Assembly (NCBI GenBank): GCA_029856045.1
Contig: JAHQWG010000039.1
Coordinates: forward strand, 32,001 to 96,000
Origin: Promethearchaeia archaeon
Lineage (GTDB): Archaea; Asgardarchaeota; Lokiarchaeia; Sigyniarchaeales; SOKP01
DNA: 64,000 nt
Direction of reading: 5' to 3'
In this document: positions 12,736 through 57,349 of the stretch, one piece after another
Position numbering within the stretch: position 1 is the first letter of the stretch
Layout: every line of letters begins with the position of its first letter
Notes under the pieces: model-generated
Seen by the model: only the letters and a program-made list of their open reading frames with translations
What the model was told of the DNA's origin: nothing
The model's database searches: none
Program-made: the position numbers and the translations under genes

Positions 12736-14085
12736 ATGGAAAAAATTCGACTTAGAGAAAATGAAAAATTCGTCGGAATCGAATATTATGGAACCATTGA
12801 GAGAGGAATAGGGGGTATTATTAAACATAAATTTAAGGATTTTATTGTTAGGGAGATTACACGAGAAAGAAAAATATTAGAAATAAGGGAAGATCGTCCA
12901 GAGGTAGTTTTCCTACCAACTGGTAATTATACTACTTTTAATGTTACCAAAATAAAACGAGACACATTAGAAGTATTAAATATTATTGCACATGAACTTG
13001 GTATTCCATCTGAGCAAATTTCTTATTCTGGGTTAAAAGACCATCGAGCGATTACTGTCCAACAAATGTCAGTTAAAGGTAATGTAATCGAGAAATTGAA
13101 AAAAATTAAAAAACAAAACATATTTATTAGAGAGATAAGGTCTACAAAACATCGCGTTAAAGTGGGAGACAATTGGGGGAATCACTTTTCAATTATAATT
13201 AGAAATATAGAAGATTATCAAAAATTAAGCAAGAATATTGAAGCAATTAATCAATTTTTAAATAAATATGGGTTCCCAAATTATTATGGCTTACAGAGAT
13301 TTGGAATCTATCGTCCAAATTCTCACCTTATTGGCAAATATATTTTACAAAAGAAATACAAGGAAGCTATAGAAGAATTTTTGATGAGAATTTATTCAAT
13401 TGAAGAGATAAAAAACATAGGTGGAAGGAAAGAAATTTCTGAGAGTATTGAACGACTGAATTCATTTGATGAAATCCCAAGAAAATTTGAATTTGAAAAA
13501 AATATCATTGATTACTTGGCTAAAAATGGAGAAGATTATTTTGGATGCTTAGTATCTATTTCTAAGGGTGTACTTAATTTAGTTATTAGTGCATATCAAT
13601 CTTATTTATTTAACACAGCTCTCTCTAAGAGAATTCAATTGGGTTATCCAAGATTTAAGCCTGTAAAAGGAGATTTAATTGGTATATTAGAGGATGAAAT
13701 GGGCCATCTAACTAAAATAAAGTATTTATACAATGGACATTTAAAAAAACCTTTAAAAAAGGCATTGAAAATTGATCGAGCAGCAATTATTTCCCCAATA
13801 ATAGGGTATGATTCGGAATTAAACCCCTCGCATTTAATGTCTAAAATCTATTTAAAAATATTGAAAGATGAAGCAATAATGAGAGATATTTTTAGCCTTC
13901 CGGAATTTCCAGCTTTAGATTTCCCCGGGACATATAGGCCCATATCTATAAAACCTAGGGGATTGAAAATTGTTAAAATCGATGATGATGATTTATTTCC
14001 TGGGAAAAAGAAAATGAGATTAGATTTTGACTTAAGAAAAGGTTCATATGCAACTTTATTATTGAGGGAATTCATGAAACAATAA
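12736..14085 (+). CDS. truD: tRNA pseudouridine(13) synthase TruD/Pus7
   Basis: DFIVREI, SGLKDHRAITVQ, GNHFSIIIR, FPNYYGLQRFG, SAYQSYLFN, KGSYATLLLRE. Confidence 0.96.
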   Translation: MEKIRLRENEKFVGIEYYGTIERGIGGIIKHKFKDFIVREITRERKILEIREDRPEVVFLPTGNYTTFNVTKIKRDTLEVLNIIAHELGIPSEQISYSGLKDHRAITVQQMSVKGNVIEKLKKIKKQNIFIREIRSTKHRVKVGDNWGNHFSIIIRNIEDYQKLSKNIEAINQFLNKYGFPNYYGLQRFGIYRPNSHLIGKYILQKKYKEAIEEFLMRIYSIEEIKNIGGRKEISESIERLNSFDEIPRKFEFEKNIIDYLAKNGEDYFGCLVSISKGVLNLVISAYQSYLFNTALSKRIQLGYPRFKPVKGDLIGILEDEMGHLTKIKYLYNGHLKKPLKKALKIDRAAIISPIIGYDSELNPSHLMSKIYLKILKDEAIMRDIFSLPEFPALDFPGTYRPISIKPRGLKIVKIDDDDLFPGKKKMRLDFDLRKGSYATLLLREFMKQ

Positions 14086-14161
14086 ATTAATAAGATTATT
14101 TTGTTAAAGTTAAATATCACAATAGAAAAAATTTGAACTATATTAATAGGATTGATTAATT

Positions 14162-15484
14162 ATGTCTATGGATGAGATGGACGACTTTAGAAAAACTCAT
14201 TATACGAAAGATATAATTCCTGAGTTAATAGGAAAAGAAGTAATTCTTGGTGGATGGGTTCAAAATTATCGTGATTTAGGAGGACTGAAATTCATAATTT
14301 TACAGGATAAATTTGGCGAACGACAAATTACATTAAAGAAAGGCGTTGTTTCTAATGATCTTTTTGATATTAAAGTAGGATATCAATGGAATATAATGGT
14401 AAAAGGCATTGTTAAAGAATTTAAAAATGCACCTGGTGGAATAGAGATAATACCTTCCCAAATCAAGATTCTGAATAAAACTCCAGAAAAATTACCTATT
14501 GATATGACTGGAGAAACAGTTTCAGAATTGGATATTAGGTTAGATAACCGAGTTTTAGATTTAAGATCTAAGAAAAATCAAGCCATCTTTCGAATAAGGT
14601 CAGAAGTGATCAATTCAATAAGAGAGTTTCTTTTAAAAAATAATTTTACAGAAATTACAACACCAAAAATTATAGCTTCTGCAACGGAAGGTGGAACAGA
14701 ACTCTTTCCAATAATATATTTTGAGGAGGAGGCATTTTTATCTCAATCAGCTCAACTATATAAAGAACAATTATGTAGTGTTTTTGAGAACGTGTTTGAA
14801 ATAAGTCCTGCCTTCAGAGCCGAAAAAAGCCATACGAAACGTCATTTATGTGAGATTTTTACGTTAGATGTTGAAATGGCTTTTGCAAATATGCAAGATG
14901 TATTAAAATTACTTGAAGAAATGATTCAATTCATAATAAAAGACATTAGAGAAGTAAGATTGGATGATTTAAAATTTTTAAATATGGGAAAAAAAACAAT
15001 TGTTCCTAAAACACCGTTTCCAAGATATACGTATAAAGAGATAATTGAAAAAATTTCAAACGATTTTAATATAAATGTGGAATTCGGAGAAGATATCCCA
15101 ACTGAAGCTTATAGAAAATTAGGTGAAGTATTACCGGGTTATTATTATATTATTGATTGGCCAACATCGAGTAAGCCATTTTATATTTCACCCTATAAAG
15201 ATAAGCCGGAATTAACAGAATCATTCGATTTACAAAAAGGATATCTTGAACTCACATCTGGAGGAACGAGAGTTCATAATAAGGAATATTTAGAGAAAAG
15301 ATTAGAAGAAAAGGGTTTAAACCCCATATCTTTTGAATCTCATCTAAGAATGTTTGATTTTGGCATGCCACCTCATGCTGGGTTAGGGTTAGGTATTGAT
15401 AGATTAATTACTGTTCTCTGTGGACTTGAAGATATTAGAGAGGCTGTAATGTATCCAAGAACACCTGACCGATTAACTCCTTAA
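14162..15484 (+). CDS. aspS: Aspartate--tRNA ligase (archaeal type)
   Basis: OB-fold [48 protein letters not shown]. Confidence 0.97.
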
Positions 15485-15508
15485 AAAATTCTAAAAATTT
15501 TTTATAAT

Positions 15509-16417
15509 TTGAGAAAAATGATTGAAGATTATATAAAAGCTGGAAAGGCGACTAAAAGCGCAAAAAAGTTAGCACGGGAACTCACCAAACCTGGGACTCC
15601 ATTTATTGAAATTTGCGATAAATGTGAAGAAGAAATAATTGAAAATGGAGCAGAATTGGCGTTTCCTTTAAATATTTCATTAAATGAAATTGCAGCTCAC
15701 TATAGTTCTCCAATTGATGATCAGAGTGTAGTACCTGAGGAAGGTTTATTAAAATTAGACTTTGGAGCGCATGTTAATGGATATATCGCTGATACAGCCA
15801 TCACAATTAATTTAAACCAAGATAAAAAATTTGATACATTTGTTACAGCTGCAGAAGAAGCATTAGATGCAGCAATTGAAAACTTTCGACCCGGTGTTAA
15901 ATTATTTGAGATAGGAGAAAAAATTTCAGAGAAGATCATTAAACATGGATTAAAACCGATAATGAACCTTGGAGGACACAGATTATTACAATATACTTTG
16001 CATGCAGGGGAATTTGTTCCTAATTTCAAAGATAAAACTTATAATCAAGAAATTAATATTGGGGATGCATATGCAATTGAACCATTTACCACAAACGGGT
16101 TTGGACGTGTAAAAGATGGAAAAAGTAGTTATATTTATAGATTTCATAAAGATATCAAAAAAAATATACCATATGAACTAAGAACTGCAATAAGCCAAAT
16201 TAAAAAAAATTTTTCTACACTTCCATTTAGCCCCCGAGCGGTTTTAAACAAAAATTTATTTCCAAAAAAAAAAATAATGCCAATTATAAATCGCTTAGCT
16301 GGTAAAGGAGCTCTTCAACATTATCCAATTCTTGTCGAAGTAAGAAATGGATTTGTCGCACAAGCAGAGCATACGGTTGTGGTCAAAGAAAATGAAACAA
16401 TAATAACCACTAAGTAA
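15509..16417 (+). CDS. map: Methionine aminopeptidase type II
   Basis: AAHYS, DFGAHVNGYIADTA, GGH, AIEPF, AQAEHTV. Confidence 0.97.
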   Translation: MRKMIEDYIKAGKATKSAKKLARELTKPGTPFIEICDKCEEEIIENGAELAFPLNISLNEIAAHYSSPIDDQSVVPEEGLLKLDFGAHVNGYIADTAITINLNQDKKFDTFVTAAEEALDAAIENFRPGVKLFEIGEKISEKIIKHGLKPIMNLGGHRLLQYTLHAGEFVPNFKDKTYNQEINIGDAYAIEPFTTNGFGRVKDGKSSYIYRFHKDIKKNIPYELRTAISQIKKNFSTLPFSPRAVLNKNLFPKKKIMPIINRLAGKGALQHYPILVEVRNGFVAQAEHTVVVKENETIITTK

Positions 16418-16424
16418 AGAAAAT

Positions 16425-17291
16425 TTGAAAGAAAAAGTGAAAAATTATAATAAGTTATCTTTAATTATTCTCTGTGCAGGAGAAGGAAAAAGAATTCAAA
16501 AATTCTTTCCAAAAATTCCCAAATCTTTAATAAAAATAAAAAAACTCGATAAATCAATAGTAGAATATACTATAACGCAATTTTTAAATCTAAATTTTAA
16601 TAAAATTTATCTTATCTATGGATATAAAGCGAATATTTTTATTAACTATATTAAAGATTTGGAATCAAAAAATAAAATTGAAAACTTTCACTTAAATAAT
16701 TCAATTTTTCCTGTAAATGCGGAAAAGAATTACAAAAAAGGACCATTTCATTCATTTTTGGAGATTTTAAACGAACCTAATTTTATTTTCGATGATAATT
16801 TCTTCTTATTAATTCCAGGAGATACACTATTTGAAAATGAATTACTTAATACAATACTTGGATGCATTAAAGAAAAAATAAGGGAGAATGCTAATATGCC
16901 AATTATTTTTTATCGTGAATTTGATAAAAATTTAATAGAAATATATAAATTGAAAAAATGTTATTCTATTTCTGCTGTAAATATTTTAAAGCAAAAGAAT
17001 CATGAATTCTTAAAATCTATAGAAAAGATTGATATTAAATCCAAGAAATTAGAGGAACCTATTTTTCAAATGATTCCAGTTTATTTCTTCCCTTCTAAAT
17101 TTTTAAAAGAAATAAGAGATTCGATTGATATTAATCTAGGTGACTACTCAAATTTAAGGGAATTCATCAATAGCCTTTATTTAAAAGAAAAAAAAATTCT
17201 TACCTGCAAAATAAATAAATCTTTAAATTTTTTTGAAGTAGATACAATAGAAGATTTACAGTTTTTAGAAGCACATTATAAAGTAAAATGA
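16425..17291 (+). CDS. Nucleotidyltransferase (NTP_transferase) domain protein
   Basis: IILCAGEGKRI...PKSL, GDTLF, EVDTIEDL. Confidence 0.8.
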   Translation: MKEKVKNYNKLSLIILCAGEGKRIQKFFPKIPKSLIKIKKLDKSIVEYTITQFLNLNFNKIYLIYGYKANIFINYIKDLESKNKIENFHLNNSIFPVNAEKNYKKGPFHSFLEILNEPNFIFDDNFFLLIPGDTLFENELLNTILGCIKEKIRENANMPIIFYREFDKNLIEIYKLKKCYSISAVNILKQKNHEFLKSIEKIDIKSKKLEEPIFQMIPVYFFPSKFLKEIRDSIDINLGDYSNLREFINSLYLKEKKILTCKINKSLNFFEVDTIEDLQFLEAHYKVK

Positions 17292-17301
17292 TTTGAAGAT
17301 T

Positions 17302-17311
17302 AAAAAAAAAA
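17302..17311 (-). terminator. T10 tract, putative terminator of the candidate ncRNA
   Basis: A10 on + (T10 on -) just after the 3' strand of the closing stem and CCC. Confidence 0.55.
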
Positions 17312-17946
17312 GGGGGATAATAGTAGTTTTGCATTAGCAAACTTCAGAATCATTTGAATCCTCTTTTTTTTGATAAATTTTTAATTGAAATAGCGGAAAT
17401 TTTGGAAGATTCTAATTCATTTATCATTCTGGGATCTTGGGATATATCAAGATTATATATCTGAGATTTTTTTTCAAGTAGAACTTGTATTTTATAATTT
17501 CAGAGAAGTCAGTATTATGATTCTCTGTGTCAGAGTTTGGCAAACATTGCATATTATAATAATTGAAAACTAATTTTCACCGAATTTAACCATTATACAG
17601 TGAATCGAGAGCTTATACGATTAATATCTCAATATTTGATTCTTTGTAGCCGATTTTTATTTTAAAGAGAGGTTTTTTGATGGCTTTAGGTTTATTTGAA
17701 CGGAAACTAATTTTCTAATTACTTATCTTACTACCCATGAATCAATTAATTATATCAGAGAAGAACTTATTTGGTTCTCTGTATTATAGTTTGTTTAAGA
17801 AAGACTTTTTATTGATAGAACTTATGATTTAATTGAATAAAAGCCTAGTTTTTGAATTAATTTTTAACGAATTTAATGCAATAACTTTCTAAGGTTCCAG
17901 AAATTTTGTTAGAATATCAAACCAATGCAAACGGATACTATTATCC
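17312..17946 (-). ncRNA. Candidate ~630-nt structured non-coding RNA of unrecognised family
   Basis: No ORF of 60 aa or more in the 730-bp gap. The ends pair (GGATAATAGTA/TACTATTATCC plus TTTGCATTGGT/GCTAATGCAAA with G-U pairs on the minus strand). About 10 internal hairpins, a TATA box at -31 and a T-tract at the 3' end. Confidence 0.65.
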
Positions 17947-17969
17947 AAAATGATATAAGAAAATTCACA

Positions 17970-17977
17970 TTTATAAA
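17970..17977 (-). promoter_or_regulatory. TATA box (TTTATAAA) for the candidate ncRNA
   Basis: Starts 31 nt upstream of G17946 on the minus strand, canonical archaeal spacing. The box is palindromic, so it could also serve the + strand. Confidence 0.5.
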
Positions 17978-18021
17978 TATTTAGAAAATATTTTAATAAG
18001 GTCTTATTATATTAAATCCAT

Positions 18022-18423
18022 ATGAGTGATAATTCTGATAAAATAACAATTAACATAAATATTATTGACTGTGGAACAATTAAAGCAACTTTTTATAGAC
18101 ATTTAAGTCCTTTTTCAGTTACGGAAATTTTAGAAAAATTACCACTTATTATTAGGGGGAGATTTAATTTTATAGGTTCGAAGACTCATTGGATGCTTCC
18201 TCAAATAGGTATATCAGTGGGTCCTGACTCCAAGGCAACGCTAACGGTTGAGAAAGGAGACATTGTTTATTGCCCCCAGACTGACAGTATTTATATCTTT
18301 GTAGAGAATGATAATCTTACAACAAAGATGAATAAAATGGGGAAAATTAATAATATAGAGGATTTAAATTTATTTTCTAATGCAAAGAATGGAACTAATA
18401 CCGAATTAAAATTAAGTAATTAA
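18022..18423 (+). CDS. Cyclophilin-like fold protein
   Basis: RHLSPFSVTEILEKLP...VEKGDIVYCPQTDSIYIF pattern of cyclophilin-like (DUF3830-type) proteins. TTTTAATA lies 31 nt upstream of the ATG, so the mRNA may be leaderless. Confidence 0.7.
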   Translation: MSDNSDKITININIIDCGTIKATFYRHLSPFSVTEILEKLPLIIRGRFNFIGSKTHWMLPQIGISVGPDSKATLTVEKGDIVYCPQTDSIYIFVENDNLTTKMNKMGKINNIEDLNLFSNAKNGTNTELKLSN

Positions 18424-18431
18424 ATGTTGAT

Positions 18432-19238
18432 TTATTCTTCTTTCTTTTGCCGATCTTCCAAATATCGAGTCCAATCGAAACCAAATATAAACATCATAAT
18501 TGTTATTGTAAGAATAAGCATAATACCTTCAATTATCACATCTTGAATTGGAGTTAATTCTGCACCAATCCCTAAAAGTCCTAGTCTCACCAATACTGGC
18601 CAAGTGCAATAGAACAAAGTCGTAAAAGTCTTCCCAATCCATCCAGGCAATAATGCCTTGTACCATTTATAATGAAGCAAACCAAGCGGAATATATAATA
18701 AATCATCTGGGGCAGGAGTAAGGGCAAATAGGAAAATGTATAGGGGAGTTCGTTTATCATTTTCTAAAACCAATTTTCCAAACCCACTTAAATTCTTCAT
18801 ACTTTTGGAACTTGAAACATCTATTAATTTCCCAGCCCCATATCCAGCGATATAGCCAGCTAACTCTCCAATAACACAACCTAATCCCCCAAATACAACA
18901 AAACCCATAATTTCCATCCAAAAATTACTATTAGCTAATATTTCTTCAAATAATAATCCCTGATTTCCGTATTTCATTAATAATGAATTTGATAATGTAA
19001 ATAAAATGAATGGAAAAGGAATTGGGAAGCCAATGCTTGCTGATCCAATCAAACAAACTAAAAAAGCAATAAATAAACCCCAGAAATAATTAGTATCTTC
19101 TGTTAGGACCACAAAAGAAGAGCGCACTGATATTACAAAGTCTTGGAATTCAGGAAAAACAAAAAAACACAAAAGATAAGCCAAAACTATCACATAAAAA
19201 AATATAAAAACATTTAATAATCGCTTGGATAGGGTCAT
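18432..19238 (-). CDS. VTT/DedA-domain membrane protein
   Basis: IGFPIPF, GLGCVIGELAGYIAG, FALTPAPDDLLYIPLG, GWIGK. Confidence 0.8.
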   Translation of the reverse strand: MTLSKRLLNVFIFFYVIVLAYLLCFFVFPEFQDFVISVRSSFVVLTEDTNYFWGLFIAFLVCLIGSASIGFPIPFPFILFTLSNSLLMKYGNQGLLFEEILANSNFWMEIMGFVVFGGLGCVIGELAGYIAGYGAGKLIDVSSSKSMKNLSGFGKLVLENDKRTPLYIFLFALTPAPDDLLYIPLGLLHYKWYKALLPGWIGKTFTTLFYCTWPVLVRLGLLGIGAELTPIQDVIIEGIMLILTITIMMFIFGFDWTRYLEDRQKKEE

Positions 19239-19382
19239 GATAAATTAAAATTAATTTGGGTTATTAATCTTATTTAGTAATGATTCAAGCTCTAATTCTC
19301 AAACACAATACTGATTAAAAAATTTCTAATGGAATAAAGGTAATAAATAGCAGAAAAAAGATTTCTTCTTAGAATCAATGAA

Positions 19383-19769
19383 TCATTTTGTAGATAATTC
19401 GATTTCAATTCTAGATATAATATCTTTATTGTTTTTGTTGTTTTTGTTGTTTTTATTGTTTTTGTTGTAATTTTCGCCTCTCATTCGAGAATCCCGGTTT
19501 TTCCCATAATTCCCATAATTCCCATAATTCCCATAATTACCATAATTACCATAATTATTATTACGAGAACTTATAGATATATTGCTAATATCGATTCCTG
19601 GATACATTCTTCTTTTTAGATCAACAGCGGTTTCGACAGCAGTTGCAATCTCGTCTCCTTCTCCTTTAATTAAAATAGTTCTTGTCCCGGAAGTGAATGC
19701 AAATATACCATCTGTCGTGTATTTGCCTTTGTCCCGTCGATTTCTTACGGTGATAACCTTGGGATTCAT
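19383..19769 (-). CDS. Alba-like DNA/RNA-binding protein with a low-complexity NYG/NNK insertion
   Basis: TILIKGEGDEIATAVETAVDLKRRM...ISNISISS...ISRIEIEL aligns to the Alba pattern (IKARGxAIxxAVDVA...IxIGT...SxIEIxL). Confidence 0.75.
   Translation of the reverse strand: MNPKVITVRNRRDKGKYTTDGIFAFTSGTRTILIKGEGDEIATAVETAVDLKRRMYPGIDISNISISSRNNNYGNYGNYGNYGNYGNYGKNRDSRMRGENYNKNNKNNKNNKNNKDIISRIEIELSTK
19424..19556 (-). repeat. Two 9-bp tandem repeat arrays encoding ~(NNK)4 and (NYG)6
   Basis: (c/a)ccataatt x6 at ~19503-19556 and tttgttgtt-like x4-5 at ~19424-19467. Confidence 0.9.
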
Positions 19770-19906
19770 ATTTTAAAAAAAGATATTTAGAACTTAATAA
19801 TTAAAATTTGACTATACTAAATAAAAACCTTGTTATATTTAAATTATTTTTAGATTGTCAAAGCACAAGTAATTTGAAAATGAAGTATGATTTTTTTAAA
19901 GATGAG

Positions 19907-21058
19907 TTATCTTATTTTGAATTTTAATTTTTCTTCGATAATTGCAATCTCTTTTGAATAAGAACTTAGTCTTTCGTCCAAATATTCGATGATCTTTCTT
20001 TCGGCGGTATCTAAATAATCATAATAAGGGCGAATGACTTCCAATTTTTCATTGAATCTATCTTTAATCTTTCCTAACCATTCTTTTGGTTTCAGTAATT
20101 TCTTCTCGAATTCGCCTTGAATTTTTTTCTTTGCTTCCTCAAATTTCTTTTTAGCTTCAGATTTAGTAGATGTTTTATCTTTTAGGATTTTTTTCAATTT
20201 TCGTTTTGATTTTACTACTTCTTTCTCTAATTTTTCTCTATAATGCGGAACACGATATTTTTTTTCTAGGAATTTTGGATTCCATTCATACAGATAACGA
20301 TCTGCCTCCTCTTCAGCTAGTTCTTCTGAGGTTGTAATTTTTTTGTCTCTTTTTGCAACTAGGATTAATCCAAAATTTCTTTGTAATTGAGCCATCAATC
20401 TTTTTCGTAATATATTATGAATATATTGCAATATTTCTTTAATTTCTTTAAATTTTGGAAGTATTTCCTTAGCTTCATTATTAGCGTTATTTATTGCTTG
20501 ATCAACAGGAACATCAAATTTTAATTCTGCAAATGCATATTTTGAATAAATACCACGAGATGTATCAACAAGTCGTAAACCTTTAATTCCAGAAACATTA
20601 ATAGTGTGCTCTGTATGGTCATAAATAAGTCCTATGGCATATGGATTTGGACCTTGATATCCTAGTTGCGTTGAAGTATCAACTCTGGAGAAAAACCAGC
20701 CAAAGCCTGGATGCGTATGCCACCACCCTATAATAAAATCATCACTTTGTTCATTTAGGAATCTTTCATAAAGAGTTTCATCGATCTGAGCCATATCTGC
20801 ATATTGTTTTGTTTCAAATTTAACACCTGCACGACCACCAATGACCATCGGAATTGCATCCGAAATATAACAGATATTATCATTCTTAATATGTCCAATT
20901 AGAATTCCATATGCCTCTCTCCAATTTTTTGGCCTTATATCATTATTTGCATATCTCAAGGCGTATACTACAATTCTCCTATATGCTTTCATTGAGATAA
21001 TGCAAGGAGATTCTGGATCAACTTTTTTTGATGAAAAATTAATATATTTTCTTACCAT
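19907..21058 (-). CDS. MPN+/JAMM metalloprotease (Rpn11/CSN5-like) with C-terminal coiled coil
   Basis: REAYGILIG, IIGWWHTHPGFGWFFSRVD (E...HxH-x7-S-x2-D); K/E-rich helical C-terminus. Confidence 0.88.
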   Translation of the reverse strand: MVRKYINFSSKKVDPESPCIISMKAYRRIVVYALRYANNDIRPKNWREAYGILIGHIKNDNICYISDAIPMVIGGRAGVKFETKQYADMAQIDETLYERFLNEQSDDFIIGWWHTHPGFGWFFSRVDTSTQLGYQGPNPYAIGLIYDHTEHTINVSGIKGLRLVDTSRGIYSKYAFAELKFDVPVDQAINNANNEAKEILPKFKEIKEILQYIHNILRKRLMAQLQRNFGLILVAKRDKKITTSEELAEEEADRYLYEWNPKFLEKKYRVPHYREKLEKEVVKSKRKLKKILKDKTSTKSEAKKKFEEAKKKIQGEFEKKLLKPKEWLGKIKDRFNEKLEVIRPYYDYLDTAERKIIEYLDERLSSYSKEIAIIEEKLKFKIR

Positions 21059-23720: not shown

Positions 23721-23918
23721 TTTTTTTTAAATCAATCCATTTTTTAAAGCATATTATCATATTTGAACAAATTAATTCAATTTAGAAATGTAAATACAAA
23801 CCTTTAAATATCTAATTTACCAGTTGCTGACCTTTAAATACTTTCTATTAACATTGTATAATAAAAATTTTAATAATACAAAAATAAAAAAAAACAAGGA
23901 GGTAAAAGAAAAAAAACT

Positions 23919-24131
23919 ATGTCTGCAGTTCCTGCTTTAACTGCCGCTGCTAGAAGGCGAAAGGCTAGAAGACGATGTCCCTATTGTGGCAATCATTTAG
24001 AAATATTTACCAGATATTGCAATGAATGTGGTCATGAAGTGCCAAGACCTTCAAAACGTGCAATTTATTTATTAGCTACGCTTGTTGCTATAACAGCTTT
24101 CTCAGTATTCATTATCATACAATTTATTTAG
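23919..24131 (+). CDS. Small zinc-ribbon protein with C-terminal membrane anchor
   Basis: CPYCG...CNECG, Arg-rich N-terminus, terminal hydrophobic helix; GGAGGT upstream. Confidence 0.75.
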   Translation: MSAVPALTAAARRRKARRRCPYCGNHLEIFTRYCNECGHEVPRPSKRAIYLLATLVAITAFSVFIIIQFI

Positions 24132-24242
24132 TAATATAATGGGATATATCGAACCTTGAAAAATAATATAATTATTTAATTAATCAAATTAAAAATAGAT
24201 AAAATCTTAGAAAATTAACATAAATAAAAAATTTATAATATT

Positions 24243-24257
24243 CGAAACCTTTAAATA
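24243..24257 (+). promoter_or_regulatory. BRE-TATA promoter (CGAAACC-TTTAAATA) of the ABC operon
   Basis: Matches archaeal BRE/TATA. Related ACCTTTAAATA copies occur at ~23800 and ~23830, upstream of the Zn-ribbon gene. Confidence 0.55.
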
Positions 24258-24350
24258 TGTAATTATATTTTAATTAAATTAAGTAAATGTAAAGTAAATT
24301 TAACATTTAAAAACTTTTTTACATAAAAAGAATAAAAAAGGAAAAAAAAA

Positions 24351-53621: not shown

Positions 53622-54218
53622 AAAAAATTTTCATTATTAACTTCTAATAATGATATTCCTAGAAGGTTCAAGAGAAGAATAGCCATTTGTAAAATTTTTT
53701 TAAAATTTTTTTTAGATATCAAATTTTTCACTTTTTTAATAGATTCAATAAAAATGTGTATTTATGGTTCCATTTATAGTTGAGATTTCGATAATTCAAT
53801 GGAAGTTTGAAAACTTTCTGGAAGTCTCCAAATAAATATAAAAAAAATAAATATGCAATAATTTTTTATAATTAAGATCCAGATTCAAGAAAAATAACTT
53901 AAATAAATTATTAAGATGTTCTTAATTTCTCAGATCCAGATAAGATTATTCATAAAGTTGATACGAGAGGAATGTGCCTTAAGATAATGTTAATATCATA
54001 CTATTTTTCGATTTAGTTTTTTGAAAAAAATTAAATAGTCCGAAACAAATTTTAATTCGCTCAGAGTTTTATTTTTTTCCTCATTTATTATTTAACATTT
54101 TAGTAAGTCCAGAGGAGAACTATTTCTACTGACGATATAAAATTAAACATAACCTATTTATTTAGATAAATATAATTATAAAATAAGCGAATTATAAGAA
54201 CCCAAGCTAAGTTTCAAT

Positions 54219-56861: not shown

Positions 56862-56907
56862 TAAACTAATCTATTAATAATATTTCTATCTAATCTTATT
56901 AGAAGTT

Positions 56908-57275
56908 TTGAAAATTTACTCAGATTACACATATAAAAAGGTTAAAAAAACAACAGAATATATTGATGTATGTAAGGTACATAATGTATTTACTGTTCTT
57001 GAAGCGATCCAAAGTGAAGACATAGGCGTTTTCAAGAAAGATGAGGGTGCTAAAGCCGCACACGAGGGCTTAACAGAAATATATAGATAAATATCAATCC
57101 TTCAGGTGGATTGAAAGCAAGTGGATATCCTTTAGATTTTATTGGCGTTGCACAGGGTGTAGAGTTGGTTTGTCAATTAAGAAATGAAGCGGGAAAAAGA
57201 CAAGTCGATAGTGCTGAAACGAGAATTCTTATAATTATGGAGGATTTGAAAATAATATTATATCAATTTTAATAG
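56908..57275 (+). pseudogene. Decayed C-terminal fragment of an SCP2-type/archaeal thiolase
   Basis: IDVCKVHNVFTVLEAIQSEDIGVFKKDEGAKAAHEGLTEI, then stop/frameshift, [38 protein letters not shown], then frameshift, YNYGGF. Matches thiolase EVHDCF...[13 protein letters not shown]...HNxGG with the catalytic His lost. Confidence 0.85.
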
Positions 57276-57349
57276 AGGGAAAATAATTTTAAACAAAAGA
57301 AAGGCTATGAAAATAATTAAATATTTTACTTAATAAACTAAATCTCTAT

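Follow-up and report, generated by a model that had tools for sequence, protein, structure and literature searches.

A probable stand-alone structured RNA gene with conserved, covarying ends in one family of Promethearchaeia

Asgard archaea are the closest prokaryotic relatives of eukaryotes. To our knowledge, very few large structured non-coding RNAs of archaea have been described beyond rRNA, RNase P RNA, and SRP RNA. Protein-sequestering RNAs of the CsrB/RsmZ type and 6S RNA are built of repeated hairpin modules. The Sm site reads RAU(4-6)GR, and the RNAs bound by Sm/LSm proteins comprise snRNAs and SmAP-associated archaeal RNAs. OLE, ROOL, and GOLLD are large orphan RNAs which form homo-oligomeric RNA-only assemblies (10.1101/2024.12.08.627333). 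Here we describe the minus-strand unit 17946-17315 (632 nt) in a 64,000-nt stretch of DNA from a Promethearchaeia archaeon (the window), which, judged from comparison with its relatives, very probably is a real, new, stand-alone structured ncRNA gene.

Like OLE, ROOL, and GOLLD, this RNA is stand-alone, several hundred nucleotides long, multi-helix, lineage-restricted, and defined by comparative genomics, and, as with those RNAs at their discovery, its function is not known. Whereas they are bacterial, this predicted RNA is archaeal, and it matches none of them in sequence or structure. Its interior is also far less conserved, with a nearly two-fold length range and only an end-proximal core kept. 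With archaeal RNase P and SRP (7S) RNA it has in common a single-copy gene, its own promoter, and a terminal helix formed by the 5' and 3' ends; this AT-rich lineage tolerates U runs inside such RNAs. The RNA nevertheless matches neither of the two models at E values up to 10. The likeness to CsrB/RsmZ and 6S RNA is one of architecture only (repeated hairpin modules, three in the source genus; a fast-changing body; conserved ends; a strong promoter and a terminator), but no repeated loop motif common to the genera was found, and this RNA is archaeal and has no known partner protein. Many homologues carry A-A-U(6-12)-G-A tracts between or inside hairpins, putative sites of the kind found in Sm/LSm-bound RNAs, whereas the source genus lacks these tracts and no snRNA model matched.

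The unit lies in a 730-bp interval (17292-18021) flanked by two plus-strand genes. A sequence-only reading of the window had called it the largest ORF-free gap, which holds for internal gaps at a threshold of 80 aa but not at 100 aa. Other ORF-free gaps at the 80-aa threshold (23721-24350, 630 nt; 53622-54218, 597 nt; 56862-57349, 488 nt) are without an Rfam match. The features of the interval and its borders, in the direction of the RNA, are as follows:

18022-18423, plus strand: small cyclophilin-like gene (~130 aa), bordering the gap on one side
17977-17970, minus strand: TATA box TTTATAAA, at -31 from the inferred start (sequence)
17946-17936, minus strand: 5' strand of the terminal helix P1, GGAUAAUAGUA; inferred transcription start at 17946 (sequence and repeat search)
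17931-17921, minus strand: 5' strand of P1b, UUUGCAUUGGU, a genus-specific extension containing the CAUUGG box (17927-17922)
17885-17480, minus strand: RNA body of three diverged tandem modules (direct repeats and three-way alignment)
17418-17347, minus strand: 3' hairpin adjoining the closing stem, GAAUUAGAAUCUUC ... GAGGAUUC..UGAUUC (RNAalifold, four congeners)
17338-17328, minus strand: 3' strand of P1b, GCUAAUGCAAA, followed by AC and then the 3' strand of P1
17325-17315, minus strand: 3' strand of P1, UACUAUUAUCC (sequence, repeat search, and RNAalifold of congeners)
17314-17302, minus strand: CCC and then T10, an oligo-T terminator of the archaeal type immediately behind P1 (sequence)
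16425-17291, plus strand: NTP-transferase-like gene, bordering the gap on the other side

The closing stem of about 22 bp proposed earlier was found as 11 + 11 pairs, with UCCG on the 5' side facing AC on the 3' side as a 4x2 internal loop, and its G-U pairs are strand-specific as claimed, since they become A-C mismatches if read on the plus strand. A repeat search of the sequence returned the outer 11-nt arms as perfect. The TATA box at -31 and the CCC-T10 element behind the stem were likewise both present where they had been placed. Between the terminator and the stop codon of the convergently transcribed NTP-transferase gene lie 10 nt. On the other side, the ATG of the divergent cyclophilin-like gene is 75 nt from the RNA start in the source genus and about 45 nt from the TATA box. 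As this element is near-palindromic and so close to that ATG, it may serve both directions in the source genus. The roughly 580 nt between the two ends are A-rich and the longest T run on the sense strand is 4, although 17% of shuffled sequences equal this absence of T runs of 5 or more, which is not significant. The MFE z-score was -2.18 for the minus strand and -0.76 for the plus strand (20 shuffles each), a weak signal when taken alone. The single sequence by itself thus folds mildly better than shuffles and is unconvincing without relatives.

Known RNA families and trivial explanations were considered for the interval. With Rfam 15, no match was obtained in the whole window at gathering thresholds; at E values up to 10, the region 17200-18100 gave only scattered matches of 14-21 bits to eukaryotic miRNA and snoRNA models, and in 16 homologous loci no match fell inside the RNA at E values up to 5. 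OLE, ROOL, GOLLD, HEARO, 6S, the snRNAs, and RNase MRP were all among the models without a match. The absence of RNase P, SRP, tRNA, and tmRNA signatures, noted previously by inspection, was confirmed by covariance models and ARAGORN: neither archaeal RNase P RNA (RF00373; 17200-18100) nor archaeal SRP RNA (RF01857) matched in the region at E values up to 10, and ARAGORN found no tRNA or tmRNA gene in 16500-18800. On another contig, the genome has its own RNase P RNA at G000:C27:158767-159094 (L070; full-length match, 70.4 bits, E 2e-19, gathering threshold 84) and its own SRP RNA at G000:C27:163914-164235 (L071; full-length match, 77.2 bits, E 2e-17, gathering threshold 96.5). Because both scores lie below the gathering thresholds of Rfam, standard annotation would miss both RNAs.

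A box C/D sRNA, which would have a C box (RUGAUGA) and a D box (CUGA) beside a short terminal stem in a K-turn, was rejected, the best match being snoR160 with 20.9 bits against a threshold of 42. No GA-GA arrangement flanking P1 was seen by eye in the alignments. A BHB-flanked RNA, in which 4 bp would separate two 3-nt bulges on opposite strands, was rejected as well, since the closing stem has one 4x2 internal loop in the source genus and the other genera have continuous P1 helices. Nor does the unit look protein-coding: the median longest sense ORF was 30 aa compared to 33 aa in shuffles, and indels with lengths not divisible by three abound in the alignments of homologues. U6 snRNA carries an ACAGAGA box; a look-alike in the source genus, AUACAGAGAA, was discarded, being located in a hairpin stem, not conserved elsewhere, and without a match to the U6 model.

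Homologues were searched with the cyclophilin-like gene as anchor in 41 genomes of the family and in public genomes titled Promethearchaeota or Promethearchaeia. In three congeners, the gap was 86-91% identical and both arms were invariant. Under strict criteria, the unit was found divergently upstream of the cyclophilin-like gene in 20 of 30 loci (13 genera) and in 58 of 80 public loci, and each of the 16 complete-gap loci missed by the strict scan had the conserved 3' end when inspected by eye. Collection of the syntenic intervals therefore showed the unit at the same position in at least 13 genera, all from one family of Promethearchaeia, which are Loki-type Asgard archaea. The homologues are 343-632 nt long (median 488), with the longest form in the source genus. 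They have a common layout, in which the RNA starts with GGAYAAUAG, the 3' end is complementary to the first 10 nt, and an oligo-T run follows directly; this T run after the 3' arm was present in every homologue listed. A BRE/TATA promoter is present in 67 of 68 homologues, with [AG]A..TTTA[AT]A[AT]A at -33 to -40; written as aAGATTTAAATA, it spans about -35 to -24. The CAUUGG box follows P1 at a distance of 5-20 nt and is invariant across all genera (alignments A1 and A4).

The gene order TruD/AspRS/M24 peptidase/NTP-transferase/RNA/cyclophilin-like/VTT-domain/Alba/JAB-MPN (12736-21058 in the window) is syntenic in essentially all 80 public loci (L072-L151). Reading a function from the neighbours was rejected, because the block is syntenic across the family and because in genus g7 the RNA has moved away and is unlinked from the cyclophilin-like gene. 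The cyclophilin-like protein is itself well conserved: its RH, P, RGRF, W, Y-P-D, and NG-N positions do not vary within the family. It scored below threshold with Pfam Cyclophil_like, and a remote match to TM1367, a protein whose function is not known, had an E value of 0.33. One public contig titled 'Candidatus Nanopelagicaceae bacterium' (L084, DATKTW010000163.1) carries the complete Asgard block with the RNA and is probably mis-binned or mislabelled. This Loki-type block is also present on several contigs whose labels read Thor-, Hod-, or Hermodarchaeota.

A covariance model of the 3' domain (R1) matched 92 of 131 family genomes, these belonging to genera whose 3' domain is of the standard type; in 89 of the 92, it matched once. 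In two of the three genomes with a double match, the second match was the opposite strand of the same site. The genome G135 has near-identical R1 matches at C57:3272-3380 and C117:897-1005, which, at 9% contamination, may be an assembly duplicate. In three sister families (f2-f4), R1 matched none of 19 genomes; there, different genes adjoin the cyclophilin-like gene, and such an RNA is missing from its upstream side. The 5' pattern GGAYAATAG-N(1-14)-CATTGG occurred in 100 of 134 family genomes, compared to 46 of 266 genomes that represent 32 further families of the phylum, which is roughly the chance rate, and the 21 of these outside loci that were fetched were without promoter, partner arm, and T run. 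As far as is detectable by these searches, the RNA family is restricted to one Promethearchaeia family, though diverged homologues could escape. The earlier description as an unrecognised, possibly Asgard-specific family is hence upheld as to an unrecognised and lineage-specific RNA, but it was detected in that one family and not across Asgard archaea.

In the set of 115 unique RNAs, P1 was paired in 1150 of 1150 cells (10 positions), a figure that is partly circular, as perfect pairing was a criterion of the scans. The identity of the pairs varied: position 4 was CG in 96, UA in 8, UG in 9, AU in 1, and GC in 1 of these RNAs, and position 10 was UA in 74, GC in 25, AU in 7, GU in 7, and UG in 2. 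In one lineage, five further P1 pairs showed compensatory change (GGGAAAAUAA/UUAUUUUCCC). Because of the circularity, the test was repeated on 26 loci for whose retrieval only the 3'-domain model had been used. In 23 of them, a perfectly pairing 10-nt 5' partner was located 300-720 nt upstream, each time with a correctly spaced TATA box; for 10-mers taken as controls from within the RNA, a partner was present in 3 of 104 cases. The terminal stem is thus conserved in the relatives and covaries, with both compensatory and U-G changes. With this, the relatives support the core of the sequence-only reading, namely that the minus strand holds a stand-alone gene for an RNA of about 630 nt, complete with promoter, closing stem, and terminator.

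The same data bear on an element that would act as DNA, such as a MITE or transposon remnant, a replication origin, or a protein-bound inverted repeat, as might be suspected from two perfect 11-nt inverted arms flanking 600 nt of AT-rich non-coding sequence. The U-G pairs in P1, seen in the arms of 9 of the 115 unique sequences beside compensatory changes, and the tandem U-G pairs in helix Hx (see below) would be mismatches on the opposite strand and in duplex DNA, which fixes the strand and argues against an inverted repeat at the DNA level. BLAST of the interval against the 3.34-Mb genome returned only the self-match, and the flanks ..ATCATTTT and CCCTTTTT.. share no direct repeat. With neither dispersed copies nor a target-site duplication, the unit is not a multi-copy MITE. 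Furthermore, there is one copy per family genome, its syntenic site is fixed in 13 genera, and promoter and terminator frame the arms exactly. We regard a DNA-level element as largely refuted and its probability as negligible.

The standard form of the RNA was described from a MAFFT alignment of 53 sequences, 425-515 nt in length. P1 and the CAUUGG box are followed by a variable hairpin, then by a hairpin with a U6-12 tract in its loop, by a long-range helix GUUCC..UAGUGC/GCACU..GGAGC enclosing a variable insert, and by a helix UCUUG/CGAGA enclosing a second U tract. The last element is an imperfect hairpin of about 100 nt, Hx-Hy-Hz, ending 2 nt before the 3' strand of P1. The parts of this standard-form 3' hairpin are:

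Hx: GCUUUGAU/AUCGGAGC
Hy: variable
Hz: UUCA..GGA/UCC..UGAA

For the 43 pairs of the standard form, 90.1% of the cells were paired, compared to 39-50% when the partners were slid by 1-3 columns. The covariation score was 0.138, compared to 0.04-0.06 for the slid partners, and none of 500 shuffles reached 0.138. Tandem U-G pairs were present in Hx in 41-46 of the 53 sequences. The sequence of Hy is fully different between subgroups (e.g., CAGAUUUG/CAAAUCUG, UCAGGAGA/UCUUCUGA, and AUAAUUG/CAAUUAU). Model R1, which covers the 3' domain only, has Hy just 55% paired because its seed alignment mixed registers; Hy was therefore tested by swapping partners between subgroups. Own partners gave -4.26 kcal/mol and swapped partners -2.48 kcal/mol, the own partner being better in 47 of 63 cases. 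For the U-loop hairpin, the difference in the same test was weak (-6.81 versus -6.23 kcal/mol). Apart from P1 and Hy, most helices show conserved sequence rather than covariation. RNAalifold returned no structure when the 3' ends of all genera were mixed, and a naive column-pair scan returned mostly U-run artefacts.

In most genera, the strand immediately preceding Hx (CAAUAGG-AGCUUUGAU) is similar to the 5' end, GGACAAUAG...GCAUUGGNU (e.g., L054:872-1354, minus strand; columns 525-541 versus 1-30 of alignment A4). The 3' strand AUCGGAGC-NN-CUAUUGUCC consequently has two possible partners that exclude each other, and a switch between two conformations is possible in most genera. In the source genus, the 5' end outcompetes the other partner of the 3' strand with 22 bp.

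In nearly all genera except the source genus, U6-12 tracts fall between +88 and +110 and again near +330. Equal in length to the final terminators and similar in appearance to archaeal terminators, they could end many transcripts early in these genera. On these grounds, the promoter might, in most genera, yield mainly a small RNA of ~100 nt whose 3' end is the first U tract, and the remainder would be read-through. This does not agree with the covariation between the 5' end and a 3' arm located 350-600 nt downstream, nor with the source genus, where internal T runs of 5 or more are missing altogether. The position of the first U tract in a hairpin loop, with the 3' half of the hairpin beyond the tract, is a further, weak point against it. 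In addition, the RNase P RNA of the genome contains a T9 run and its SRP RNA contains T5, T5, and T6 runs; oligo-T is evidently not an absolute terminator in this lineage, as far as these gene sequences tell. Promoter-like sites inside the RNA were rare and not conserved in position, and no promoters of sub-transcripts were found. The covarying distant arm, the lack of internal promoters, and the T runs in RNase P and SRP RNA together argue that the full-length RNA is made, and we consider a predominantly short transcript improbable.

Beyond the first ~35 nt, the RNA of the source genus is unalignable to the standard form, with its 3' hairpin (17418-17347) occupying the position of Hx-Hy-Hz. 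Three diverged tandem modules, each some 120-150 nt long, make up its body (17885-17735, 17735-17600, and 17600-17480); they share ..AAACU..ACA(G/A)AGAAYCA-AAUA.. and have a mean column identity of 66% in a three-way alignment. The direct repeat families D1, D3, D5, and D10 lie behind this assignment. The three-module body explains the extra length of the RNA in the source genus. Modules one and three form the hairpins CAGAGAA/UUCUCUG at 17781-17756 and 17527-17501.

The internal hairpins listed in the sequence-only reading fared unevenly. CAGAGAA/UUCUCUG and GAUAUAU/AUAUAUC persist throughout the four close congeners, while UUUCUGG/UUAGAAA, CAAGU/ACUUG, and UGAUAAAU/AUUUAUCA are broken in at least one; CAAGU/ACUUG is kept on the plus strand only in one congener. 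In AGGCUUUUAUU/AAUAAAAAGUCU, a G-U pair changes to A-U among the congeners. Double compensatory changes were found in none of the 138 predicted pairs in the genus alignment of four congeners. On this alignment, conservation is not supported for most of the internal hairpins of the source RNA. Within the genus, the RNA diverges by 7-13%, compared to 5-24% at fourfold-degenerate sites of the flanking genes. As this matches the fourfold-site rate, the gap identity of 86-91% is no evidence of constraint, and the interior is, by this measure, without purifying selection at within-genus depth. Given the broken hairpins and the missing compensatory pairs, we regard the ends, the CAUUGG box, and the 3' hairpin as the putative functional core and the interior as loosely constrained.

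A strong stand-alone promoter, clamped ends, an invariant box with an adjoining hairpin, and a fast-changing body fit best with a stable RNP scaffold or a protein sponge, which we propose tentatively as a function of the RNA. P1 would protect both RNA ends, and the P1-proximal core, that is, the CAUUGG box and the 3' hairpin, would serve as a specific docking platform. The repeated modules and the U-rich loops may serve as binding sites for a general RNA-binding protein in multiple copies, an Sm-like protein being one example.

The CAUUGG box can also be read as the seed of a trans-acting antisense regulator, in which single-stranded CAUUGG(UUU) would pair with mRNA, rRNA, or tRNA precursors and the remainder would provide stability or bind a chaperone. 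The box is the only internal sequence that is invariant across all genera and is dispensable for P1 in most of them, and the U-rich tracts resemble the Sm/Hfq-type sites of base-pairing sRNAs. A seed of 6-8 nt, however, yields no testable target set, the box is paired with the 3' end in the source genus and in G003, and 350-630 nt is very large for a seed-type regulator, so that we think an antisense role rather unlikely.

A self-assembling or catalytic large RNA without a dedicated protein, comparable to the OLE, ROOL, and GOLLD oligomers, would be in line with the size, the multi-hairpin architecture, and the orphan status of the family, and homo-oligomeric assemblies are documented for large orphan RNAs (10.1101/2024.12.08.627333). 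Ornate RNAs have many covarying helices, whereas the interior here is poorly conserved over lengths of 343-632 nt, and no conserved tertiary motifs were found; such an RNA is very improbable. More far-reaching, and distinctly unlikely in our estimate, is the idea of an Asgard-specific large RNP RNA that would recruit SmAP/LSm or other eukaryote-type RNA-binding proteins through its end-clamped core and its U-rich loops, which are similar to Sm sites. In architecture, it would then correspond to end-clamped, fast-evolving eukaryotic scaffolds of the snRNA or telomerase RNA type. Equally far-reaching would be an assembly made of RNA only, as with OLE, ROOL, or GOLLD, in which the 3' end might switch between two partners.

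Literature searches found no description of such an RNA. A metagenome scan with the 3' motif returned 99 contigs, all of them genomic and none with transcript ends. On the comparisons made here, the RNA family is without a known relative, and the claim of novelty concerns the family and does not extend to a mechanism. The gene is single-copy, is present in every sampled genus of one Asgard family, and matches none of 4227 Rfam families. As an object of study it is well defined: its ends are predicted exactly, a 10-bp clamp joins them, the 6-nt box does not vary, and the 3' hairpin is conserved. It also exemplifies an RNA whose ends would be conserved while the body turns over and expands by module duplication.
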